Shown here piece by piece: positions 60-57,513 of a stretch of DNA of 64,000 bases. The notes beneath the pieces were generated by a model that was given only the letters and a program-made list of their open reading frames with translations, searched no databases and was not told the origin of the DNA. The position numbers and the translations under genes are program-made. The stretch lies in assembly GCA_035638695.1 (NCBI GenBank), contig DASQZM010000008.1, forward strand, positions 252 to 64,251, in the 5' to 3' direction. The stretch's first letter is position 1, and each line of letters opens with the position of its first letter. Source of the DNA: Gammaproteobacteria bacterium. Its GTDB lineage: Bacteria > Pseudomonadota > Gammaproteobacteria > UBA5335 > SLRW01.

Positions 60-1622
60 TCAGGATGCGTAGCCGGCCGCGCCCCCGTCGGGGCCCGCAT
101 CGGGTGCCTGCGGGCCGCGCCGGATGGCCCGCACCATCAGATACATCTCCACCACGATGAACACGCTGTAGATGAGCACGAATCCGGCCAGCGAGAACGC
201 CATGTAGGCAACGCTGTGGGTGGACGCGGACATCCAGGTGGGAAGCACGCCGTACACGGTCCAGGGCTGGCGACCCAGCTCCGCGACCAGCCAGCCCACC
301 TCGCAGGCGAGGAACGGGACCGGGATGAACCACGGCGCGATCTTCAGCAGCCAGCGCTTCTCGGTGATGCGGTTGTTGAGCGAATACAGCGTCGCCAGGA
401 CCAGGAAGGCCAGCATGGCGAAGCCCGCCGCCACCATGATGCGGAACGACCAGAAGATCACCGGAACGTTGGGGATGGTGTCGCGAGCCGCCTGCCGGAT
501 CTGTGCCGGGGTCGCCTTGCCCGGATCGGGTGCGTAACGCTCGACCAGGAAGCCGTAGCCGAGGTCCTTGCGATGGGCCCGGAAGCGGGCCAGGGCGGCC
601 TGGTCGTGGGGATCGCCGGCGAGCGTGCGCAGCGCCATGACCGCCGGGATGCCGTTGCGGATACGGGCGGCGGCGCGCTGCTCCAGGGTGTCGGCACCCG
701 GAATGGGCGTATCCATGGTGCGGGTGACCAGCGGCGTGAGCAGGCCCGGGATCTTCACGGCCGCCAGGTTGCGCTGCTCCTTCTGGTCGGGGATCGCGAA
801 CACGCTGAAGCCCGCCGGCGGCTCGGCGGTATGCCATAGCGCCTCCATGGCCACCAGCTTGTGCGGCTGGTTGCTGCCGTCAATGAATCCCAGGGCGTCG
901 CCCAGGCTGATCACGCCGATGCTGGCGAACACCCCGAACAGCACCGCGATGCGAAAGGAACGCTTGGCGATCTCCATGTGCCGGTTGCGCAGCATGTACC
1001 AGGCGCTGATGCCGGCGACGAAGATCGCCGCGGTGACGTAGCCGGCGATACTCGTATGCACGAACTTGGCCTGGGCGTCCGGGTTGAAGATCAGCTCGGT
1101 GAAACTGGTCAGCTGCATACGCATGGTGACGGGATCGAAGGTCGCCCCGTGCGGCACCTGCATGAAGCTGTTGGCGATCAGGATCCACAACGCCGACAGG
1201 TTGGAGCCGAGCGCCACCATGTAGGTGACCAGCAGATGCTTGCCCCGGCTCATGCGGTCCCAGCCGAAGATCATCAGCCCGACGAAGGTCGATTCGAGGA
1301 AGAACGCCATCAGGCCCTCGATCGCCAGCGGTGCACCGAACACGTCGCCGACGAAGCGCGAGTACATCGACCAGTTGGTGCCGAACTCGAACTCCATGGT
1401 GAGACCGGTGGCCACGCCCAGGGCGAAGTTGATCGCGAACAGAGTGCCCCAGAACTTGGCCATGTCCCGGTAGATCTGTCTCCCGGTCGTGACGTAGACG
1501 GTCTCCATCGCCGCCAGCAGGAAGCTGAGGCCGAGCGTCAGGGGCACGAACAGGAAGTGATAGAGCGCGGTGGCCGCGAACTGCCAGCGCGACAGGTCGA
1601 CCACGGTCTGCAGGTCATGCAT
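60..1622 (-). CDS. cydA: cytochrome bd ubiquinol oxidase subunit I
   Basis: 520-aa ORF. N-terminus MHDLQTVVDLSRWQFAATALYHFLFVPLTLGL and GRQPW motif are typical of CydA. Confidence 0.95.
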   Translation of the reverse strand: MHDLQTVVDLSRWQFAATALYHFLFVPLTLGLSFLLAAMETVYVTTGRQIYRDMAKFWGTLFAINFALGVATGLTMEFEFGTNWSMYSRFVGDVFGAPLAIEGLMAFFLESTFVGLMIFGWDRMSRGKHLLVTYMVALGSNLSALWILIANSFMQVPHGATFDPVTMRMQLTSFTELIFNPDAQAKFVHTSIAGYVTAAIFVAGISAWYMLRNRHMEIAKRSFRIAVLFGVFASIGVISLGDALGFIDGSNQPHKLVAMEALWHTAEPPAGFSVFAIPDQKEQRNLAAVKIPGLLTPLVTRTMDTPIPGADTLEQRAAARIRNGIPAVMALRTLAGDPHDQAALARFRAHRKDLGYGFLVERYAPDPGKATPAQIRQAARDTIPNVPVIFWSFRIMVAAGFAMLAFLVLATLYSLNNRITEKRWLLKIAPWFIPVPFLACEVGWLVAELGRQPWTVYGVLPTWMSASTHSVAYMAFSLAGFVLIYSVFIVVEMYLMVRAIRRGPQAPDAGPDGGAAGYAS

Positions 1623-1630
1623 GAGAAGGG

Positions 1631-1765
1631 CCTCGTTTCCGACAGGGGCGATGCTATCGGGCGCCCGGCGCGGGAATCTTGACCTGCGTCAAAAGGCGAT
1701 CGATCGGGGCGGCGGGCAGGGCCACGGGACTCCGAAACGTGGCGTTACCCCTTGTCCGGTTAGTA
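1631..1765 (+). repeat. short (~135 bp) copy A of the palindromic MITE-like repeat family
   Basis: Right end GTGGCGTTACCCCTTGTCCGGTTAGTA (1739-1765) matches the family terminus. Weaker inverted partner CGTTTCCGACAGGGGCGATGCTA at 1634-1656. Confidence 0.5.
1651..1692 (-). promoter_or_regulatory. candidate FNR/Anr-dependent (class II) promoter of cydAB
   Basis: Perfect palindrome TTGAC-CTGC-GTCAA at 1679-1692. Minus-strand -10-like TAGCAT at 1656-1651. If the TSS is ~1644, the box centre is about 41.5 nt upstream of it. Confidence 0.5.
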
Positions 1766-1834
1766 GAATGGGCAACCAGTTTGTCACCGCTCCGCGTGCC
1801 GCGGGGTCGACTTCTTGCGAAATCGAGGCAGCGA

Positions 1835-2689
1835 ATGGCTGAAACCAGACGATTTGAAGGTACCGACACCTACGTCGCCACCGAAGAGCTGATGATGGCG
1901 ATGAACGCGGCGATCACGCTGCAGCGTCCCCTGCTGGTCAAGGGCGAGCCGGGTACCGGCAAGACCATGCTGGCCGAGGAGGTGGCGCGGGCGTTGGGAC
2001 TGCCGCTCTACCAGTGGCACATCAAGTCCACCTCCAAGGCCCAGCAGGGGCTGTACGAGTACGACGCGGTCTCGCGGCTGCGCGACTCGCAGCTGGGCGA
2101 GGAGAAGGTCCACGAGATCTCGAACTACATCGTCCAGGGTCCGCTGTGGCGCTCGTTCGAGTCGGACGAGCAGCCGGTGCTGCTGATCGACGAGGTCGAC
2201 AAGGCGGACATCGAGTTCCCCAACGACCTGCTGCGCGAGCTGGACCGCATGGAGTTCTACGTCTACGAGACGCAGCAGCTGGTGCAGGCGAAGTACCGTC
2301 CGATCATCATCATCACCAGCAACAACGAGAAGGAGCTGCCGGACGCGTTCCTGCGCCGGTGTTTCTTTCACTACATCCGCTTCCCGGACAGGGAGACGAT
2401 GCAGGAGATCGTCGACGTGCACTTCCCGGGTCTGAAGCAGGACCTGGTGCGCGAGGCGATGGAGGTGTTCTTCGACCTGCGGGAAGTCCCGGGCCTGAAG
2501 AAGAAGCCCTCGACCTCGGAGCTGCTGGATTGGCTCAAGCTGCTGATGGCCGAGGACATTCCCCCGGAGGCGCTGCGCGGGAAGGACGCCAGCAAGGCGA
2601 TCCCGCCGCTGTACGGCGCGATGCTCAAGAACGAGCAGGACGTACAGCTGTTCGAACGCCTCGCGTTCATGGCTCGTCGCCAGGCCTGA
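1835..2689 (+). CDS. MoxR-family AAA+ ATPase (AAA_5/CoxD-like)
   Basis: Walker A GEPGTGKT, Walker B LLIDEVD. Start moved to ATG 1835 (MAETRRFEG). Confidence 0.9.
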   Translation: MAETRRFEGTDTYVATEELMMAMNAAITLQRPLLVKGEPGTGKTMLAEEVARALGLPLYQWHIKSTSKAQQGLYEYDAVSRLRDSQLGEEKVHEISNYIVQGPLWRSFESDEQPVLLIDEVDKADIEFPNDLLRELDRMEFYVYETQQLVQAKYRPIIIITSNNEKELPDAFLRRCFFHYIRFPDRETMQEIVDVHFPGLKQDLVREAMEVFFDLREVPGLKKKPSTSELLDWLKLLMAEDIPPEALRGKDASKAIPPLYGAMLKNEQDVQLFERLAFMARRQA

Positions 2690-2758: not shown

Positions 2759-3937
2759 ATGCTGATCGACTTCTTCTTCACGCTCAGGGGCGCGGGTCTG
2801 CCGGTCTCCATTACCGAGTACCTGACCATGCTGGAGGCGCTGAAGGCGCGCATCGTCTCCTGCAGCGTGGACGACTTCTACTTCCTCGCCCGCGCCAGCC
2901 TGATCAAGGACGAGACCCAGTACGACAAGTTCGATCGCGTCTTCGGCGCGTACTTCCGCGGCATCGAGGACCTCGCCCGGCTGATGGTCGAGAAGGAGAT
3001 CCCCGCGGACTGGCTGGCGCGGCAGGCGGAGCTCAACCTCTCCGACGAGGAGAAGGCGATGATCGAGTCCATGGGCGGCTGGGACAAGCTCATGGAAGAG
3101 CTGCGCAAGCGCCTGGAAGAGCAGCGAGAGCGCCACCAGGGCGGCAACCGGATGATCGGTACCGCCGGTACCTCGCCCTTCGGCGCCTACGGCTACAATC
3201 CTGAGGGGATCCGCATCGGCCAGGCGGGCGGACGCAACCGCAGCGCCGTGAAGGTCTGGGACAAGCGCGAGTTCCGCAATCTCGACGACACCGTCGAGCT
3301 CGGTACCCGCAACATCAAGGTCGCGCTCAAGCGCCTGCGCGAGTTTGCCCGCGAGGGCACCGAGCTGGAGCTGGACCTCGACGACACCATCCGCTCGACC
3401 GCCCGCAACGGCGGGTACCTGGACATCCGCATGGTCCCGGAGCGGCACAACCGGGTGAAGGTGCTGCTGTTTCTCGACGTCGGCGGCTCCATGGACGAGC
3501 ACGTGCGCGCCTGCGAGGAGCTGTTCTCGGCGGCACGCAGCGAGCTGAAGCACATGGAGTATTTCTACTTCCACAACTTCATCTACGAATCGGTGTGGAA
3601 GGACAACCGCCGCCGGCACAGTGACCGGATCCCGATCGCCCGGATCCTCAACACCTACGACCGGGACTACAAGGTGATCGTCGTGGGTGACGCGACCATG
3701 AGTCCCTATGAGATCCTGTATGCCGGTGGCAGCATCGAGCACATGAACGAGGAGACCGGGGCGACCTGGCTGAAGCGCCTGCTGGAGCACTTCGACCACG
3801 TGGTATGGCTCAACCCCGAGCCGGAGCGCCGCTGGGAGCATACCCCGTCGCTGCAGATCACGCGGGAGTTGATGGAGGACCGGATGTACCCGCTGACCAT
3901 CGAGGGCCTGACGCGCGCCATGCGCGCGCTCAAGTGA
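2759..3937 (+). CDS. VWA domain-containing protein (CoxE-like partner of the MoxR ATPase)
   Basis: 392 aa. N-terminus MLIDFFFTLRGAGLPVSITEYL. MIDAS-like LFLDVGGSM. Lies directly downstream of the MoxR gene. Confidence 0.85.
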   Translation: MLIDFFFTLRGAGLPVSITEYLTMLEALKARIVSCSVDDFYFLARASLIKDETQYDKFDRVFGAYFRGIEDLARLMVEKEIPADWLARQAELNLSDEEKAMIESMGGWDKLMEELRKRLEEQRERHQGGNRMIGTAGTSPFGAYGYNPEGIRIGQAGGRNRSAVKVWDKREFRNLDDTVELGTRNIKVALKRLREFAREGTELELDLDDTIRSTARNGGYLDIRMVPERHNRVKVLLFLDVGGSMDEHVRACEELFSAARSELKHMEYFYFHNFIYESVWKDNRRRHSDRIPIARILNTYDRDYKVIVVGDATMSPYEILYAGGSIEHMNEETGATWLKRLLEHFDHVVWLNPEPERRWEHTPSLQITRELMEDRMYPLTIEGLTRAMRALK

Positions 3938-3958
3938 CGGCTCCCGGGGGGGCTCGCC

Positions 3959-5314
3959 TCAGGCGTCCTCGACGTGCCGGAGCAGCTCTCCCGGCTGCAG
4001 GCCGTAGGCACCCGTCTCGAGCGAACGCTTGATGTCCAGCCGCTGGCCCGTGCGGGTCTGCGGGGTGCGGGAGAGATCCACCTCGTAGGGCGCGTCGAGA
4101 CGATGGTGCTCCTCGTCGAGCACCACCAGGACCTTCGGCCGCAGGCGCTCCTCATTGGTCGCCACGACCACGCCTACCTCCTCGGTGCTGAGCTCCACCA
4201 GGCTGCCGATCGGATAGATGCCGATGCAGCGGATGAACCGGTCCACGAGCTCAGGTTCGAAGAACCGTCCCCGGCCCCGGTACAGGGCCGCCGTGGCGTT
4301 AACCGGCGAGCTGGCTTTCTTGTAGGGGCGCTGGCTGATGATCGCATCGTAGGTGTCGCACACCGACACGATGTGAGTCAGCGGGTGGATCTGGCCGCCC
4401 GCCACCCCTTCCGTGTAGCCACTGCCGTCGAGGCGCTCGTGGTGAGAGAAGACTACGTTGCGGCTGCTGACAGGGACGCGCTCGGAGCCGTCGACGATCT
4501 CCACGCCGAACTCCGGGTGCTTGCGCATGATCTCCATTTCCTGCGCGGTCAGCTGTCCCGGCTTGTTCAGCACGCTGTCCGGGATATGCATCTTCCCGAT
4601 GTCATGCAGGAACGCACCGAAACCCAGTTCCAGCAGGGTTTCCCGGGGCAGGCCCAGGTGCCGGCCGAGGGATATGCTGAGGATGCACACCGACAGTGAG
4701 TGGAGGTAGGTATACTCGTCGCGCCTCTTGAGCCCCGACAGCCAGACCAGGGCGTCGGGATTGCGCAGGATGCTCTCGGTGATGTATTCGACCGATTCGC
4801 GCGCGGCCCGCGTATCGAGGCTGCGCCCGTTGCGCGCATCCTCCATCTGCCGCCGCACCAGGCTGCGGGTTTCCAGGATCAGCGGGCGCGCGGCGCGGAC
4901 TTCCTGGTCCAGGGAAGTGGTCACGGGGGGCGGATGCTGGGGTGCCCGGCCCAGCTGCCGGGCCAGCCTCGCCTCCCAGGGAACGGCGCGTGTGAATCCG
5001 TTGCCACGCTCGCGGCGGGAAACCGGCTGGATCCTGCGGATTGCGCTCGGCGCGGTGCCGCGCTCCGCCGGGTGCGCCACCGCCCCGCCGGGACCGCGGG
5101 TCTGGGCGCCGGCCGTGGGCGGAGCCTCCCCGGCGTGCACGTAAACATACCGGCAGGTGCTCTGCACTTCCGCGACCTGTTGCCAGTTCTCCAGCACGAA
5201 TCCCTGGAAGGGAAACGGAGACTCCAGCCAGGGGCGGTCCAGGCGTGACACGTACATCCCCGGCATCAGGTCCGAAACGTATACCTTGCGTTCTTCGCTC
5301 ACGTCCGACTCCAT
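3959..5314 (-). CDS. HD-GYP domain phosphodiesterase with DUF3391-like N-terminus
   Basis: HDIGK and HHERLDGSGY motifs. Start taken at MESDVSEERKVYVSDLMPGMYV. Confidence 0.85.
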   Translation of the reverse strand: MESDVSEERKVYVSDLMPGMYVSRLDRPWLESPFPFQGFVLENWQQVAEVQSTCRYVYVHAGEAPPTAGAQTRGPGGAVAHPAERGTAPSAIRRIQPVSRRERGNGFTRAVPWEARLARQLGRAPQHPPPVTTSLDQEVRAARPLILETRSLVRRQMEDARNGRSLDTRAARESVEYITESILRNPDALVWLSGLKRRDEYTYLHSLSVCILSISLGRHLGLPRETLLELGFGAFLHDIGKMHIPDSVLNKPGQLTAQEMEIMRKHPEFGVEIVDGSERVPVSSRNVVFSHHERLDGSGYTEGVAGGQIHPLTHIVSVCDTYDAIISQRPYKKASSPVNATAALYRGRGRFFEPELVDRFIRCIGIYPIGSLVELSTEEVGVVVATNEERLRPKVLVVLDEEHHRLDAPYEVDLSRTPQTRTGQRLDIKRSLETGAYGLQPGELLRHVEDA

Positions 5315-8631: not shown

Positions 8632-8716
8632 GCGCCGGCCCGCTCCGGCCGAGTCCCCGTGTCCGACATGGCAGGCCAGTGTATCAGCCCGCGCCGGTGC
8701 TACCGCTACCGCACGA

Positions 8717-9026
8717 GCACAACCGGGAAGAGAGGTACATGTCCGACAAGATTCGGGCCCGGTAGGATCGGAAAGGCCAACGTGGCGATCATCGTTGGGG
8801 CCAGCGGGGCGTGGGCGAAGCCATGGCCGGCCGCCCGGGTGGGTGGGTGCCGGCGTGCTGGTCGGCAGCTGCCGCCCGGACCCCGTGGACGCGGCCGCCG
8901 GGCGGGTGCGGCGCGATCGGCTCGAGGACAGCCCCATCCCGCGTCACGCCGGCGATGCCGCATCCGGGCGTTGCTCGCTGTAGCAGCACGCTCCGAAGCG
9001 TGGCATTACCTCTGACCGGGTTAGTA
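8717..9026 (+). repeat. diverged ~310-bp copy B of the MITE-like repeat family
   Basis: Right end GTGGCATTACCTCTGACCGGGTTAGTA (9000-9026). Degenerate left end GCACAACCGGGAAGAGAGGTACATGTCC (8717-8744). Internal blocks (GCGAAG, CCCCGT..GGACG, TGTAGC) occur in the same order as in copy D. Confidence 0.5.
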
Positions 9027-9155
9027 TCATGCCGGAAGTCGGCGGTGCCGGGCGGATCCCCGCGCGACGCCGCCTCGTCACCCGGATGTTCGCCGGGCGC
9101 CGCCGCCGGGGCTGTGTTCCGGGGCGGTGGGTAACCGACTGGAGGTACCCCCACC

Positions 9156-9815
9156 ATGTTCAGGCTGTACGGCTTTGCAGTCAGCAACTACTACAACGTC
9201 GTCAAGACGGCGATGCTGGAAAAGGGGCTGGAATTCGAAGAGGTGCTCGTCTACCCGTCGGACGACCCCGACTACCTGGAAAAGAGCCCCATGGGCAAGG
9301 TGCCCTGCCTGGAGACGGAGGAGGGTGTGGTTTCCGAGTCCCAGGTGATGCTGGACTATCTGGAGGACATCCGCCCCGAGCCGCGGCTGTATCCGGTCGA
9401 CGCCTTCCCGCGAGCCAAGGTGCGCGAGCTGCTGCGTGTGATCGAGCTCTACCTCGAGCTGCCAGCGCGTCGGCTGTACCCGGAGGCTTTCTTCGGCGGC
9501 AGCGTTTCCGAGCAGACCCGCACGGAGGTCCGGCCGGCACTGGCGAAAGGTACGGCCGCTCTGCGCCGGCTCGCGCGCTTCGAACCCTTCCTGGCGGGGC
9601 GTGACTTCAGCTATGCCGACATCGGCGCCGCCATTCACCTGCCGCTGATCGGCGAGGCCGGGCGGCGGATCTACGGCGAGAGCCCGCTGGCTGATCTGGG
9701 CGAGCTCGGGCCGTATCTCAAGCGCGTGCGCGAGCGGCCCTCGTTCCAGCGCACGCTTGACGATAACCGCCAGGCGCTGGAGGCGTATCTCAAGTCACGC
9801 GGGTCGCAGCGGTGA
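9156..9815 (+). CDS. glutathione S-transferase
   Basis: MFRLYGFAVSNYYNVVKTAMLEKGLEFEEV...SPMGKVPCLE is a typical GST N-domain. GGAGG RBS. Confidence 0.9.
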   Translation: MFRLYGFAVSNYYNVVKTAMLEKGLEFEEVLVYPSDDPDYLEKSPMGKVPCLETEEGVVSESQVMLDYLEDIRPEPRLYPVDAFPRAKVRELLRVIELYLELPARRLYPEAFFGGSVSEQTRTEVRPALAKGTAALRRLARFEPFLAGRDFSYADIGAAIHLPLIGEAGRRIYGESPLADLGELGPYLKRVRERPSFQRTLDDNRQALEAYLKSRGSQR

Positions 9816-13267: not shown

Positions 13268-13415
13268 CGCCGTGCGCGACGCGCTGTGCCCGTACTGGGA
13301 ATCGCGTTCCGTCAACGTGCCTCCCTGTGCCCACTCTCCGTGGCGCCTGGACCGGGTTAGTAATTCTGCCCCGCCGTCCCGGATACCGGGGTGGCGGGAT
13401 GGTCTTGTACCCTCG

Positions 13416-24433: not shown

Positions 24434-24451
24434 CGTCTCGCCAACCTCCTC

Positions 24452-24690
24452 GGGGGTATGGTCAGGCTTTACAGCCGCGGGGTGCTTTGCCGGGCGCGCG
24501 CGTGCGCGGCCCGGTGGCGCCACGCCAGGCGCACACGATACCGCCGGCGGCGCGCGCGGCTTCCTGCGGGCGCTGCCTGGGCCGCCGCGGACGGCGGTGG
24601 TCGTCGGCCGTCTAGCGCCACTACACCCCGTGCTCGCGCCTTGCCGCGATGGCGCGGCCAGTCGCCCGGGGCTGACAATACCCCGGAAAA
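24452..24690 (+). repeat. degenerate copy G of the MITE-like repeat family
   Basis: GGACGGCGGTGGTCGTCGGCCGTCTAGCGCC...GTGCTCGCGCCTTGCC aligns with GGACGGCGCTGCTCGTCGGTCGTGTAGCGCC...GCTGCTCGCGCCTTGCC of copy D. Left end is GGTCAGGCTTTACAGCC. The right end is eroded, so limits are approximate. Confidence 0.4.
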
Positions 24691-24841
24691 GCACGGTTTT
24701 TACCAGAGAACGGCCCGGCGGGGAACCGCGGCGTGAGCCGGCCCCGTTTCGCGGCGACCGCAGCAAGACCTTATACTCCGGCCATCACTCCGCACGGCCA
24801 CGCCGCCGGTAGGCCGTGCCGTCGCACGAGGGAGGTTATCC

Positions 24842-25879: not shown

Positions 25880-26632
25880 TCAGTGCGGCCGGACCGTGGC
25901 CCGTACCCGGCCCTCGCGGTCGACGATCCGGATGCTGCGGTACCCGCCGCGTGGCACCTGCAGCAGGAGGCAAAGACGGGTGATCAGCCGCGCCCGGGCC
26001 GCGCCCGGGCGCGGGGTGATCCAGTTCACGCGCAGGCTCGCGCTGGCGTGGCGCACGGGCAGGAACCCGCCCGCCAGCGCGAGCCGGTAGCCGCCCGTCG
26101 GGCGGCGCCCCATCGAGACCAGGACCACCCCGTAGCGACGGAAGTCGACCGCCGGCGGCGGCCGCCGGGTGCCGTGGATCCGCTGCCATGTCGCCTGCAG
26201 GCCCGCGCGGCCGTCGATCCAGGAGGCCGACGGCCCGGCGGCGGCACCGCCGCACTGGCTCGCGGCAGCCAGCACGCGGACGGACTGCGGCGCCGTCCGG
26301 ATCGTGCGGGCCGGTGCGTCCGTGGCGCGGTAGACGTAGTCCGGCTGCGCGTGAGCGACGTCGGCCCGGGCGCTCCAGGCGCTGACGGCCCGCGCGGCGC
26401 TGGTGCCTGCGGGCAGCCGGACACGGGTCATGCGCAGGGCGGCGACGTGCAGCTCCAGGCGGCCCCCCAGCGCCTGCACCGCCTGCTCTCGCGCTGCGTT
26501 GGTGGCGGTGCGGCGGAACCGCACCAGGATCTGGCCGGGGACGAAGTCCCTGCCGGGCTTGCCGTAGGAGGCCGCCCGGACCAGGCCGGGGACCAGGCAC
26601 AGGATCAGGACGACCAGCTCCAACCGCTTCAT
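25880..26632 (-). CDS. secreted protein: subtilase-propeptide (inhibitor I9)-like domain fused to a PrcB C-terminal-like domain
   Basis: Signal peptide MKRLELVVLILCLVPGLVRAAS. GQILVRF...VAHAQPDYVYRA resembles S8 propeptides. VLVSMGRRPTGGYRLAL resembles the PrcB_C motif. Confidence 0.65.
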   Translation of the reverse strand: MKRLELVVLILCLVPGLVRAASYGKPGRDFVPGQILVRFRRTATNAAREQAVQALGGRLELHVAALRMTRVRLPAGTSAARAVSAWSARADVAHAQPDYVYRATDAPARTIRTAPQSVRVLAAASQCGGAAAGPSASWIDGRAGLQATWQRIHGTRRPPPAVDFRRYGVVLVSMGRRPTGGYRLALAGGFLPVRHASASLRVNWITPRPGAARARLITRLCLLLQVPRGGYRSIRIVDREGRVRATVRPH

Positions 26633-30868: not shown

Positions 30869-31429
30869 ATGGACGAGATCTACGTTTCCGTCGACATCGA
30901 GACCGACGGCTTCACCCCCGGCGCCAACAGCATGCTCTCCCTGGGGGCCGCCGCCTACCTGGACGACAAGACCCTGCTGGACACCTTCAGCATGAACCTG
31001 GAGACCTTGCCCGGGGCCTCCGCGCATCCCGCGACCATGAAGTGGTGGCAGGGCTTCCCGGAGGCCTGGGAGGCCTGCCGGCGGGACCCGCGGCCTCCCG
31101 GCGAGGTGATGCGTATATTCGCCGACTGGGTCCGGGCGCTGGAGGGGTATCCGATCTTCGCCGGCTACCCGGTCTCGTTCGATTTCAGCTTCGTCTCCTG
31201 GTACCTGCACCACTACGCTCACGACAATCCGTTCGGCTTCGCCGCGCTCGACATCAAGAGCTACGCCATGGCGCTGACCGGGGGTACCTTCCGGCACACC
31301 ACCAAGCGCGGCATGCCGGCGGAGTGGTTCGACGATCTCCCGCACACGCACAGGGCGCTGGACGACGCCATCGAGCAGGGTGCACTGCTGTGCAATCTGC
31401 TGGCCCAGCGCCGGCGGAACGGCGCGTAA
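30869..31429 (+). CDS. DEDD-type 3'-5' exonuclease
   Basis: VSVDIETDG (ExoI), YPVSFDFSF (ExoII), HRALDDA (ExoIII). Confidence 0.8.
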
Positions 31430-31489
31430 CCGGAACACGCGCGTCCCGCAGGGGTCTCACCAGGGTACGTGAGACGACGGCACGCCGAT

Positions 31490-31761
31490 TACTAACCCGG
31501 TCAGGGGTCATGCCACGTCTCAGGGAGCGCGTGGGCGGTGAGGACCAGGGCGGCGGGAGCGAAGGCGTCGCAGCGCTACGACAAGCGAGCGCAACGCGGT
31601 CATCGCCGCTCACGCGCTCTCCCGCAGGGCGCTCGCCTCGCCCCGTCTGGACGGCGCTGCTCGTCGGTCGTGTAGCGCCCGACTCCACTGCGCTGCTCGC
31701 GCCTTGCCAGACAGACCGACAGGAGCGCTGAGATGAGGCGTTACCCCTGACCGGGTTAGTA
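31490..31761 (+). mobile_element. best-preserved copy D of a palindromic MITE-like element (272 bp, 35-bp TIRs, no ORF)
   Basis: TACTAACCCGGTCAGGGGTCATGCCACGTCTCAGG matches the reverse complement of the right end at 30/35 positions, with the first 19 perfect. The arms remain partly complementary further inward. Confidence 0.7.
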
Positions 31762-31784
31762 CGGACAATCACCGCCGAGGATCG

Positions 31785-32321
31785 ATGAGACCCGCCCACG
31801 TTGTCATGCTGTGCGTGCCCCTGGCACTGGCCGCCGCCGGTGTCCGGCCCGCGGCTGCCGGCGACCTTGCTGCACGCGCCTCGACCGCGCGGAACAGGTG
31901 GTACACGTCCCGGCAGGTGCAGCGGGGCGCGGTAGTCTATGGTCAGCATTGTGCGCGCTGTCACGGCGACCGCGCCCAGGGCGGACCGGGCTGGCCGAAG
32001 CCGGGCGCGAAGGGCACCGTGCCCGCGCCGCCGCTCGACGGGACGGGGCACACGTGGCTGTGGCCACTGCGGCGCCTACGGCACGTGATCGCTCACGGGC
32101 TGCCCATGGATCATGGCAGAATGCCGGCGTGGAAAGGAAAGCTCAGCGACAGCCAGGTCAATGCCACGATCGCGTGGTTCCAGGCATGGTGGCCGGATCC
32201 CGTGTACCGCCGCTGGCGCCTGATCCAGCGCCGTGCGCACAGGCTCCGTCACCGACGCGCCGGGCGTGGTCCGCGGGGGCTTGTGCAGCGCAAAGCCCCG
32301 CCGCCGCGAAAGGCTCCCTAG
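31785..32321 (+). CDS. class I c-type cytochrome, secreted
   Basis: Signal peptide, haem motif CARCHG, distal GRMPAW. The Arg-rich C-terminal ~35 aa look atypical. Confidence 0.8.
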   Translation: MRPAHVVMLCVPLALAAAGVRPAAAGDLAARASTARNRWYTSRQVQRGAVVYGQHCARCHGDRAQGGPGWPKPGAKGTVPAPPLDGTGHTWLWPLRRLRHVIAHGLPMDHGRMPAWKGKLSDSQVNATIAWFQAWWPDPVYRRWRLIQRRAHRLRHRRAGRGPRGLVQRKAPPPRKAP

Positions 32322-40578: not shown

Positions 40579-40609
40579 GCCCGGGCGTCACGCCCGCGCC
40601 CTGCGGGGC

Positions 40610-40636
40610 GTGGCATTCCCTCTGACCGGGTTAGTA
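40610..40636 (+). repeat. solo terminus (copy C) of the MITE-like repeat family
   Basis: GTGGCATTCCCTCTGACCGGGTTAGTA. Only ~30 nt separate it from the osmC-family stop, so no full element fits. Confidence 0.55.
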
Positions 40637-40811
40637 AAATGGCCGATCCGCGTCCGCGCGCCGACCCGGCCTTCCGGCCGCGACCGAAGGGAGGCGACGG
40701 GAGCCGGAGATGCGTTTCCCGCGGGGGCAAATTGGTGGATAATGCGCGCCTCGCAGGCGCGGTGCGGACGGGTATTCGGGGGCGCGGCACGACCGACGTG
40801 GAGGTATCGAG

Positions 40812-42473: not shown

Positions 42474-42741
42474 CACTGGTCCGGTCGGAGGTATTGTTAC
42501 CTCTCACAGGGCGCGTACGCGGTGAGGGCAAGGCGCGGGAGCGAAGGCGCAGCCTTGCCCCGTCGAGTGCGCGCAACGCCGCGATCGCCGTTCACGTACC
42601 GGAACTTCGGGTGTTTCCGTCGCCCCGTCGGGATGGCGTTGCCCGCCGGCCGTGTAGGGTCACGACAGGCCACGCCTCGCGCCTTGCCAGACAGACCGAC
42701 AGGAGCGCTCAGAAGTGGCATTCCCACAGACCGGGCGGGTG
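42474..42741 (+). repeat. copy E (~268 bp) of the MITE-like repeat family, both termini eroded
   Basis: Shares GCGGTGAGG..GGGAGCGAAGGCG, GCGCGCAACGC..ATCGCCG.TCACG, TCGCCCCGTC.GGA and CTCGCGCCTTGCCAGACAGACCGACAGGAGCGCT with copy D, in the same order. Confidence 0.6.
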
Positions 42742-42775
42742 CCAATCCGACAGCAACGACCGAAAGGGGGGGGGC

Positions 42776-44636: not shown

Positions 44637-44710
44637 TGGGGGATCGTCTAGCGGTAGGACAGCGGACTCTGACTCCGCTAACCCAGGTTCGAATCCTGGT
44701 CCCCCAGCCA
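44637..44710 (+). tRNA. tRNA-Gln (anticodon CTG), CCA encoded
   Basis: Acceptor TGGGGGA/TCCCCCA, anticodon arm GCGGA-CTCTGAC-TCCGC, T arm CCAGG-TTCGAAT-CCTGG, 3' GCCA. Folded by eye. Confidence 0.9.
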
Positions 44711-51579: not shown

Positions 51580-51772
51580 GGGGCGCCTCCCGCCCGTGCC
51601 GTCGGGTACCATCGACCTTGAACCAGTGGTTCAGGTGGGGTCGGTAGCCGGGGCCTCAGGCTTTCCGCTCACGGGCGGACTTGCTCAACAGCCCCGACAC
51701 TCCCAACCCCCGGGTCGGTGAATAGGCTCAAGAGGTAACTCCCGATACCCGTCGAACACCGCAGGAAGCGCC
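51580..51772 (-). ncRNA. ssrS: 6S RNA
   Basis: Minus strand aligns by eye to E. coli 6S: GUGUUCGACGGGUAUCGGGAGUUACCUCUUGAGCC, GUUGAGCAAG-hairpin-AAGCCUGAG, ACCUGAACCACUGGUUCAAGG. Closing stem GGCGCUUCC/GGGAGGCGCC. zapA-ssrS-ygfA synteny. Ends are +/-10 nt. Confidence 0.75.
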
Positions 51773-57106: not shown

Positions 57107-57291
57107 TTCCTGCGCAACTTCCGCCGGTACGGCCGGCCGGGGACCGGATGCGCGGAATGCGGGTGTCGGGCCCGCAACAGGCACCGTCACGGGGCTTCGG
57201 GGGGATCTTACATCGCCTTATCGCGATGGAGTGATGTATCGGATTTGTGTTGGCATTCCCGCTTTGGGTATATTCTGCTCCTCGACGATCG

Positions 57292-57480
57292 TGCATGCGG
57301 GAGAGATCCGGCTACGGGCCGGACGCCGAAGGCGCAAATCCGCCCGGAAACGCTCAGGCAAAAGGACCGCTTGCATGCGTCGGCTCTGGAGAGCGCGCCC
57401 GCGGGGGCGCCACCGAAGGGGCAGGAGGGGCCGTCCGGCGTTCGGGGCTTCTCCGATCTCTCAGGTTACCGGACAGAGGG
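57292..57480 (+). promoter_or_regulatory. tandem glycine riboswitch (two aptamers)
   Basis: Aptamer 1: GGGAGAG...CGCCGAAGGCGCAA...CTCAGGCAAAAGGAC. Aptamer 2: CTCTGGAGAG...CACCGAAGGGGCA...CTCAGGTTACCGGACAGAG. Directly upstream of gcvT. Confidence 0.85.
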
Positions 57481-57513
57481 GCGGCAGGTTGATACGGCCT
57501 GCCGCTCCTTTTT
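57481..57513 (+). terminator. riboswitch expression-platform terminator
   Basis: GCGGCAGG-TTGATACGG-CCTGCCGC followed by TCCTTTTT. Confidence 0.6.

Follow-up and report, generated by a model that had tools for sequence, protein, structure and literature searches.

A palindromic element and its relatives in the window

The 64-kb stretch of DNA analysed here (the window; 69% G+C) carries, between an exonuclease gene and a cytochrome c gene, a 272-bp unit bounded by terminal inverted repeats (TIRs), which we take as the archetype of its family (Table 1). The initial annotation had described a unit of this length with 35-bp TIRs whose outer 19 positions are perfect; direct reading of the 35-nt ends indeed gives 30 matches of 35 with the outer 19 identical, and a repeat finder delimits arms of 34 nt that are 88% complementary. 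With up to three mismatches allowed, a search of the window finds four occurrences of the 19-mer terminus, where shuffled sequence would yield 0.01. The core of the family, CTAACCCGG...CCGGGTTAG, is always bracketed by TA, and the TA previously remarked upon at the termini of the archetype precedes every intact end that we examined.

Complementarity of the arms extends inward of the TIRs but is weaker there: when the inner 202 nt are aligned with their own reverse complement, z is 3.9, the values for two other copies being 6.0 (L002) and 3.3 (L014). The RNA fold energy of the archetype is -166.7 kcal/mol (z=-7.1), and its single-sequence minimum free energy structure comprises the TIR stem and two internal hairpins, whereas RNAalifold applied to four copies returns one long imperfect hairpin instead; the inner alignment and the four-copy fold thus agree with the earlier view that the arms remain partly complementary further in and that the unit can form a single long hairpin. 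The absence of coding capacity is likewise confirmed: stops fall in five of the six frames, no frame reaches the GC3 of 0.85–0.9 that is typical of real genes here, and the full-length copies (272, 270, 264 and 266 bp) differ by lengths that are not multiples of three. Long ORFs crossing the element (31042–31731 on the forward strand and 31254–32051 on the reverse strand of the window, and 3386–4081 on the reverse strand of L029) are spurious, and public annotations of the window species list one such ORF as a gene of 231 aa.

Copies within the window were sought by BLAST and by nhmmer, with a profile built from four full-length copies and a model of the 34-nt end. These searches yielded two full copies, one copy of a sister subfamily and four solo ends, and not the five elements plus a solo end that had been counted before: two of those elements are solo ends, one belongs to the sister subfamily, and the remnant at 13330–13362 had been missed. 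The related copy placed at 42474–42741 is indeed full-length, if degenerate at its ends, and contains a 32-nt block (42679–42710) identical to 31700–31731; it lies in a divergent region, with a COQ7-like gene on the reverse strand to one side and the next gene on the forward strand to the other. Just downstream of this copy, and just upstream of the GTG of the next ORF, there is a run of nine G residues that may be a slippage-prone tract. The solo end assigned to 40610–40636 was also recovered, its best extent being somewhat longer (Table 1).

For the remaining three the picture is mixed. The element annotated at 24452–24690 is a genuine insertion relative to the sister species described below, but only its interior (24547–24645) is homologous to the archetype, at element positions ~116–219, and its TIR, TCGGGGGTATGGTCAG / CTGACAATACCCCGGA (24450–24465 / 24672–24687), is unlike that of the archetype. 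The same right arm and terminus, CTGACAATACC, recur in a metagenome locus (L009, 3658–3757); the two subfamilies have GGTCAGG and part of the inner TIR in common and differ in the outermost 9–10 nt. As to the stretches 1631–1765 and 8717–9026, only their right-hand ~40–45 nt belong to the family; beyond the terminal ~40 nt similarity does not exceed that of shuffled sequence, no convincing second TIR was found for 1631–1721 or 8717–8985, and we therefore reject both as full elements. Between the start of an aminotransferase gene and the solo end at 8986 the window has, at 8697–8964, ~240–270 nt that are extra by comparison with the sister species, in which ~29–55 nt occupy this place (L025); this additional stretch does not resemble the repeat family and lacks a clear TIR.

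Table 1. Members of the repeat family and other features of the window, with the family members found at metagenome and other genome sites
Feature	Position	Strand	Remarks
Archetype, full-length element	31490–31761	.	272 bp, both flanking TAs counted
Left TIR of archetype	31490–31523	+	TA followed by CTAACCCGGTCAGGGGTCATGCCACGTCTCAG
Right TIR of archetype	31728–31761	-	pairs with 31490–31523
Second full-length copy	42475–42740	.	73% identity; ends decayed, TA lost
Sister-subfamily element	24435–24697	.	263-nt insertion specific to the window relative to the sister species
Solo end (TIR and a few nt)	8986–9026	-	hexamer TATCAT (9025–9030), 125 nt upstream of the GST gene
Solo end	40586–40636	-	hexamer TAAAAT (40635–40640), ~170 nt upstream of speD
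Degenerate solo end	1722–1765	-	hexamer TAGAAT (1764–1769), 65 nt upstream of the AAA/MoxR-like gene starting at 1835
Remnant end	13330–13362	-	TACTAACCCGGTC then shortened TIR; junction TAATTC, faces no gene start
L003			equals L002; 88%-identical copy in yjbQ
L014			full copy, 79% identity, upstream of mrp
L004/L013			72-bp mini-element, two TIRs and a short loop
L006/L010			90-bp right half
L007/L008			solo end
L009			left arm, truncated where the locus ends; also a sister-subfamily arm unmatched by the 18-mer scan
Exonuclease gene	30869–31429	+	neighbour of archetype
Cytochrome c gene	31785–32321	+	neighbour of archetype
cydA	60–1622	-	cytochrome bd subunit I
Palindrome TTGACCTGCGTCAA	1679–1692		FNR/ANR-box-like; between the divergent cydA and AAA/MoxR-like genes
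5' leader of AAA/MoxR-like gene	1770–1842		
GST gene	9156–9815	+	
Nine-G run	42766–42774		
tRNA-Gln(CTG)	44637–44710	+	
6S RNA gene	51583–51770	-	
Tandem glycine riboswitch	57288–57478	+	upstream of the ORF starting at 57493

Distribution and mobility of the family

Among 185,579 species representatives, the exact 19-mer terminus was found in the genome of one other species, the gammaproteobacterial MAG SMAG_U11089 (L002), where it marks a MITE copy; a match in an archaeon was dismissed as due to chance. Scanning of JGI metagenomes with an 18-mer gave 14 stretches, nine of them genuine and all nine MITE copies or ends, which represent the archetype itself (L012) and a further five sites whose flanks are unrelated to one another (Table 1). 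The other five stretches are chance matches in coding sequence, such as TPDRVS in an IS30 transposase and QPLTGLV in other proteins. Family copies occur in both orientations, and the loci that bear them all have 67–70% G+C; the closest named relatives of the flanking proteins belong to unclassified Gammaproteobacteria MAGs and to Ectothiorhodospiraceae (54–64% identity for GST). No match was found among PLSDB plasmids with either the whole element or the TIR as query, viral contigs gave chance matches only, and the terminus string had no match in the searchable literature. The family is thus small and confined to a narrow clade of uncultured Gammaproteobacteria of ~69% G+C. The element terminus expected to bound any cognate transposase gene is TACTAACCCGGTCAG..., and no autonomous IS with these TIRs was detected when GTDB species genomes and JGI metagenomes were scanned for the exact terminus, nor by plasmid BLAST or a relaxed TIR search of ~250 kb of loci.

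At one of the metagenome sites (L006 2388–2969, equal to L010) a 193-aa ORF runs in frame through the 90-bp element fragment and would encode, in this order, an N-terminal TM helix, a TIR-derived LLTRSGVTPHLS... and an EF-hand-like region with DADGDGRID; it could be a disrupted gene or a case of element sequence recruited into a coding region.

A contig of a sister species (Ga0102962_1000006; L018, L025) is syntenic with positions 1–41.7 kb of the window at 85–88% identity. In it the gap between the exonuclease and cytochrome c genes measures 120 nt and holds no element, against 355 nt in the window, and the site of the sister-subfamily element measures 6 nt against 263 nt. No target-site duplication is visible at the latter insertion, and the L018 junction corresponding to position 31490 is too diverged to be read, so that neither comparison provided a clean empty site with a classical duplication. 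The two species differ also near ~26295–26351, where the sister species has ~1.7 kb of unaligned sequence (L018 3671–5398) containing a peptidase S8 gene and part of a PrcB_C gene. Within the species of the window the element is fixed, being 99.8–100% identical in all 10 contigs that carry this species' exonuclease, and no strain-level insertion polymorphism was seen among these 10. Four Logan contigs from independent short-read assemblies (L035–L038) end inside the element at window position 31613, at the foot of its first internal hairpin; here the repeat or palindrome breaks assemblies.

The clearest disruption of a gene is found in L002 and L003, in which an 88%-identical copy, with TIRs that match at 33 of 34 positions (L002), splits yjbQ (PF01894): the N-terminal 116 residues end in ...GTWQG at one TIR, and LWENRFDGHRHRLTVTVQGE* follows the other. 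All yjbQ homologues inspected are uninterrupted. The orthologue of the split gene in the closest relative of the L002 locus (L017 470–505, corresponding to L002 2134–2487; 86% nucleotide identity) has no element and carries a frameshifting deletion of 58 nt, the right edge of which lies 1 nt from the L002 insertion point; a deletion that took the element with it would fit this structure, which may be the scar of such a loss.

Considering that the sister species lacks the insertions at 31490–31761 and 24435–24697, that yjbQ is split and that copies occur in unrelated contexts, we conclude that the element is, or was, mobile. The family was already active before the window species separated from its sister and continued to be so afterwards, and older copies have decayed through internal deletion (the 72-bp mini-element and the 90-bp half) and to solo ends; since the TIRs match at 30 of 35 positions and many copies are decayed, the family is mostly old. 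The element has several of the generic features of a prokaryotic MITE: it is a non-coding unit of less than ~500 bp with TIRs, dispersed copies, and insertion polymorphism or gene disruption. We therefore consider it likely that 31490–31761 is a MITE-like, non-autonomous transposable element whose family is small, uncatalogued and restricted to a narrow gammaproteobacterial clade, and the initial proposal of an unnamed, non-coding, palindromic MITE-like family is supported by the insertion differences between species and by the lack of any Rfam, plasmid or literature match. In this interpretation a transposase encoded elsewhere would bind the TIRs and move the element, the targets would be AT-rich sites with a TA, most of them located in promoter regions in this genome, and, with less certainty, the terminal TA and a flanking nnAT may together form a -10-type hexamer used by host genes. 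Although the family itself is new, a MITE is an ordinary and common kind of small mobile element, and its description in an uncultured clade is mainly a point of annotation, which explains assembly breaks, spurious ORFs and the disrupted yjbQ.

Target site and mode of insertion

The split yjbQ is the only junction at which a coding constraint fixes the sequence that preceded insertion. Since all 13 of the homologues inspected read WQG[IV]Y[LV]WEHR, six nucleotides are needed between GGC and CTC, and the flanks observed are GGC-T-TA[element]TA-T-CTC. If both TA dinucleotides are native, the target reads TTA TAT (Leu-Tyr), by which frame and length are restored, and this is the only option that does so; a single native TA, i.e. 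a classical 2-bp target-site duplication, leaves yjbQ out of frame. The reconstruction suggests that, at this one junction, the element inserted into TA^TA with no net duplication. Under the same model each of the four two-ended copies would have entered a site with TATA in it, the site reconstructed for the L004 mini-element being a perfect TATAAT, and TATA occurs only 21 times in the 64 kb of the window. An element with TIRs that inserts without duplicating its target, if truly so, would point to an unrecognised type of transposase.

MITEs derived from IS630/Tc1-mariner elements, such as RUP of Streptococcus pneumoniae, are flanked by TA and have long TIRs, and IS630-type elements duplicate the target TA. 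The present family resembles them in the TA at every intact end and in its long TIRs; it differs in that the yjbQ frame, in this one case, needs both TAs to be native and so speaks against a duplicated TA, and neither an IS630-type transposase nor a matching IS was found in the searches of GTDB genomes, JGI metagenomes and PLSDB. Duplication-free targeting of TATA would accordingly imply a transposition chemistry unlike the IS630-type one suggested by the TA flanks.

These observations bear on whether the family might be moved by something other than a DDE transposase, namely a Y1 HUH enzyme of the IS200/IS605 or RAYT type that creates no target duplication, in which case the unit would be PATE- or REPIN-like and not a classical DDE MITE. 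The apparent lack of duplication at yjbQ and the lack of a visible one at 24435–24697 are what such an enzyme would leave, and the strongly palindromic unit, with hairpins beside its ends, is also in its favour. PATE elements derived from IS200/IS605 have no target-site duplication, and have asymmetric ends with subterminal hairpins and no long TIRs; the apparent lack of duplication is consistent with this type, but the two fully symmetric 34-nt TIRs are not and would be atypical of IS200/IS605 ends. REP/REPIN sequences are hairpins of 20–40 nt that occur singly or as inverted doublets, are numerous and are linked to a RAYT gene. With them, and with ERIC/IRU and other enterobacterial palindromic units, the family has in common that it consists of intergenic imperfect palindromes able to fold in transcripts, while ERIC/IRU and REP/REPIN differ from it in size, sequence, copy number and host; its 272 bp, 34-nt TIRs, low copy number and clear insertion polymorphism place it outside REP/REPIN. 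Neither a RAYT nor a TnpA gene came to light in the ~250 kb of loci covered by the TIR search. We regard a non-DDE enzyme as unlikely.

Junction hexamers and neighbouring genes

At 14 independent ends we read outward the hexamer formed by the flanking TA and the next four bases. Seven of them conform to TAnnAT (TAGAAT, TAAAAT, TACAAT twice, TATCAT, TAACAT and TATGAT), a form found at 3.6–5.4% of all TA sites (P about 3e-6, for a test defined post hoc). All seven face a nearby gene start and five are solo or truncated ends, whereas full-length copies have such a junction at only one of eight ends. The three solo ends of the window that lie upstream of genes have orthologous counterparts in the sister species: the end before the GST gene (L025 9853–9886), the degenerate end before the AAA/MoxR-like gene (L025), and the end before speD, for which L018 retains TTAGTAAAATG intact beside a decayed TIR part (10 of 19 positions identical). 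Over these three ends the sequence TTAGTAnnATG is identical between species at 33 of 33 positions, compared with 90 of 126 in adjacent sequence (Fisher, 6.6e-5). At the AAA-gene site a third species (L027; 77% identity) conserves GTAGAAT and the 62-nt leader, with the TIR no longer recognisable. By comparison, the terminal bases of the remnant at 13330–13362, which faces no gene, are not conserved in the sister species.

By analogy with Correia elements, this pattern of conserved solo ends suggests a functional -10 element at the junction, to which the element would contribute part of a promoter. Use of the hexamer by the host would explain why the upstream solo ends keep TTAGTAnnATG while the rest decays. 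A TA-seeking insertion in a GC-rich genome would in any case naturally land in -10 boxes, and at the AAA site the distance from the upstream FNR-like box to TAGAAT is 70 nt versus 78 nt when compared with the species without a recognisable TIR; the similar spacing in the absence of a TIR indicates that the hexamer may pre-date the element. A scan for the sigma-70 consensus found no promoter at any of the junctions tested (the archetype and three solo ends), because no -35 sequence lies 16–18 nt upstream of the hexamers; the best candidate is GTGGCA at 19 nt. Across the same four sequences a scan for intrinsic terminators returned no sites and no terminator-like T-run. If it is true that solo ends persist unchanged beside -10-like hexamers, transposon ends would have been recruited into promoters of a high-G+C genome, in which TA-rich promoter elements are scarce, and the family would offer a clean natural example.

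Several features of the AAA/MoxR-like region are recorded here in their own right. The leader of this gene (Table 1) is almost identical in the sister species and partly conserved in the third, and a 24-codon uORF from 1768 overlaps the gene start. The FNR/ANR-box-like palindrome is conserved in all three species compared, with its centre ~63 nt from the cydA start codon. Two further readings of the junctions were rejected: a sigma-54 promoter at TGGCAT...CTGAC and at the internal TGGCAAGGCGCGAGCA, in which by eye the -12 GC is missing or unconserved among copies, and a leaderless or uORF start at the conserved ATG, since for GST and speD the peptide that would follow shows no in-frame conservation.

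The closest parallel to the proposed promoter contribution is that of the CREE/NEMIS elements of Neisseria, which are likewise short, non-coding, TIR-bounded palindromes with ends that begin in TA, lie mostly 5' of genes and sometimes inside them, and form length variants through internal deletion. In the CREE 'Black promoter', the element supplies the -35 and part of the -10 sequence, and the site of insertion contributes the rest of the -10 (PMC2649163); the TAnnAT junctions at seven of 14 ends would similarly be -10-like boxes made from an element end and native flank. CREE are 104–157 bp long and reside in Neisseria (PMC2649163), whereas the present unit has 272 bp, other termini, no sequence relationship to CREE and a gammaproteobacterial host, and is thus not a CREE; it differs further in that no -35 sequence at consensus spacing is present inside the TIR, and that duplication of TA is unsupported at the yjbQ junction. 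Reused or 'mobile' promoters have also been described in prokaryotes (PMC3575422), and the near-identical short sequences found here upstream of unrelated genes, running in the same direction as those genes, are reminiscent of them, except that only a -10-like hexamer is visible and promoter activity is putative.

The most far-reaching form of these ideas would be a TATA-targeting element that inserts without duplication and completes -10 boxes, a 'mobile promoter half' that the MoxR-like AAA, GST, speD and mrp genes have kept past the species split. We consider this combination doubtful. Neither of the two points, the apparent absence of duplication and the conserved -10-like junctions of solo ends, is established.

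It may also be asked whether the ~27-nt end and TAnnAT are primarily a host promoter or operator motif (a regulon signal or a reused promoter), the 272-bp unit then being two such motifs placed back to back. The outward orientation of solo ends upstream of genes would fit such a motif, as would the apparent constraint on the terminal 11 nt and the AAA-gene site, which shows no net difference in length from the third species. Full-length copies, on the other hand, are lineage-specific insertions, one of them inside a coding sequence, and mostly lack TAnnAT (one of eight ends); neither a -35 nor any other known sigma consensus is present, and the genes concerned (MoxR-like AAA, GST, speD, mrp and tusA-like) have no obvious common function. 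We hold such a host motif to be highly improbable.

Finally, that the unit is an immobile gene for a structured non-coding RNA or a cis-regulatory RNA (a terminator, an insulator or an RNase III target) kept for its fold is scarcely credible: its fold is very stable (z=-7) and its site between two co-oriented genes would allow co-transcription, but no Rfam covariance model matched at the gathering score and relaxing the threshold to E<=10 brought up nothing but miRNA and snoRNA noise, covariation among four copies lends no support to a selected fold (covariation term +1.75; compensatory pairs 5 of 91), there is no T-run, and copies lie in both orientations, once inside a CDS, and are present or absent between species.

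Among the other features of the window, a 6S RNA gene, a tandem glycine riboswitch and a tRNA-Gln(CTG) gene were recorded (Table 1).
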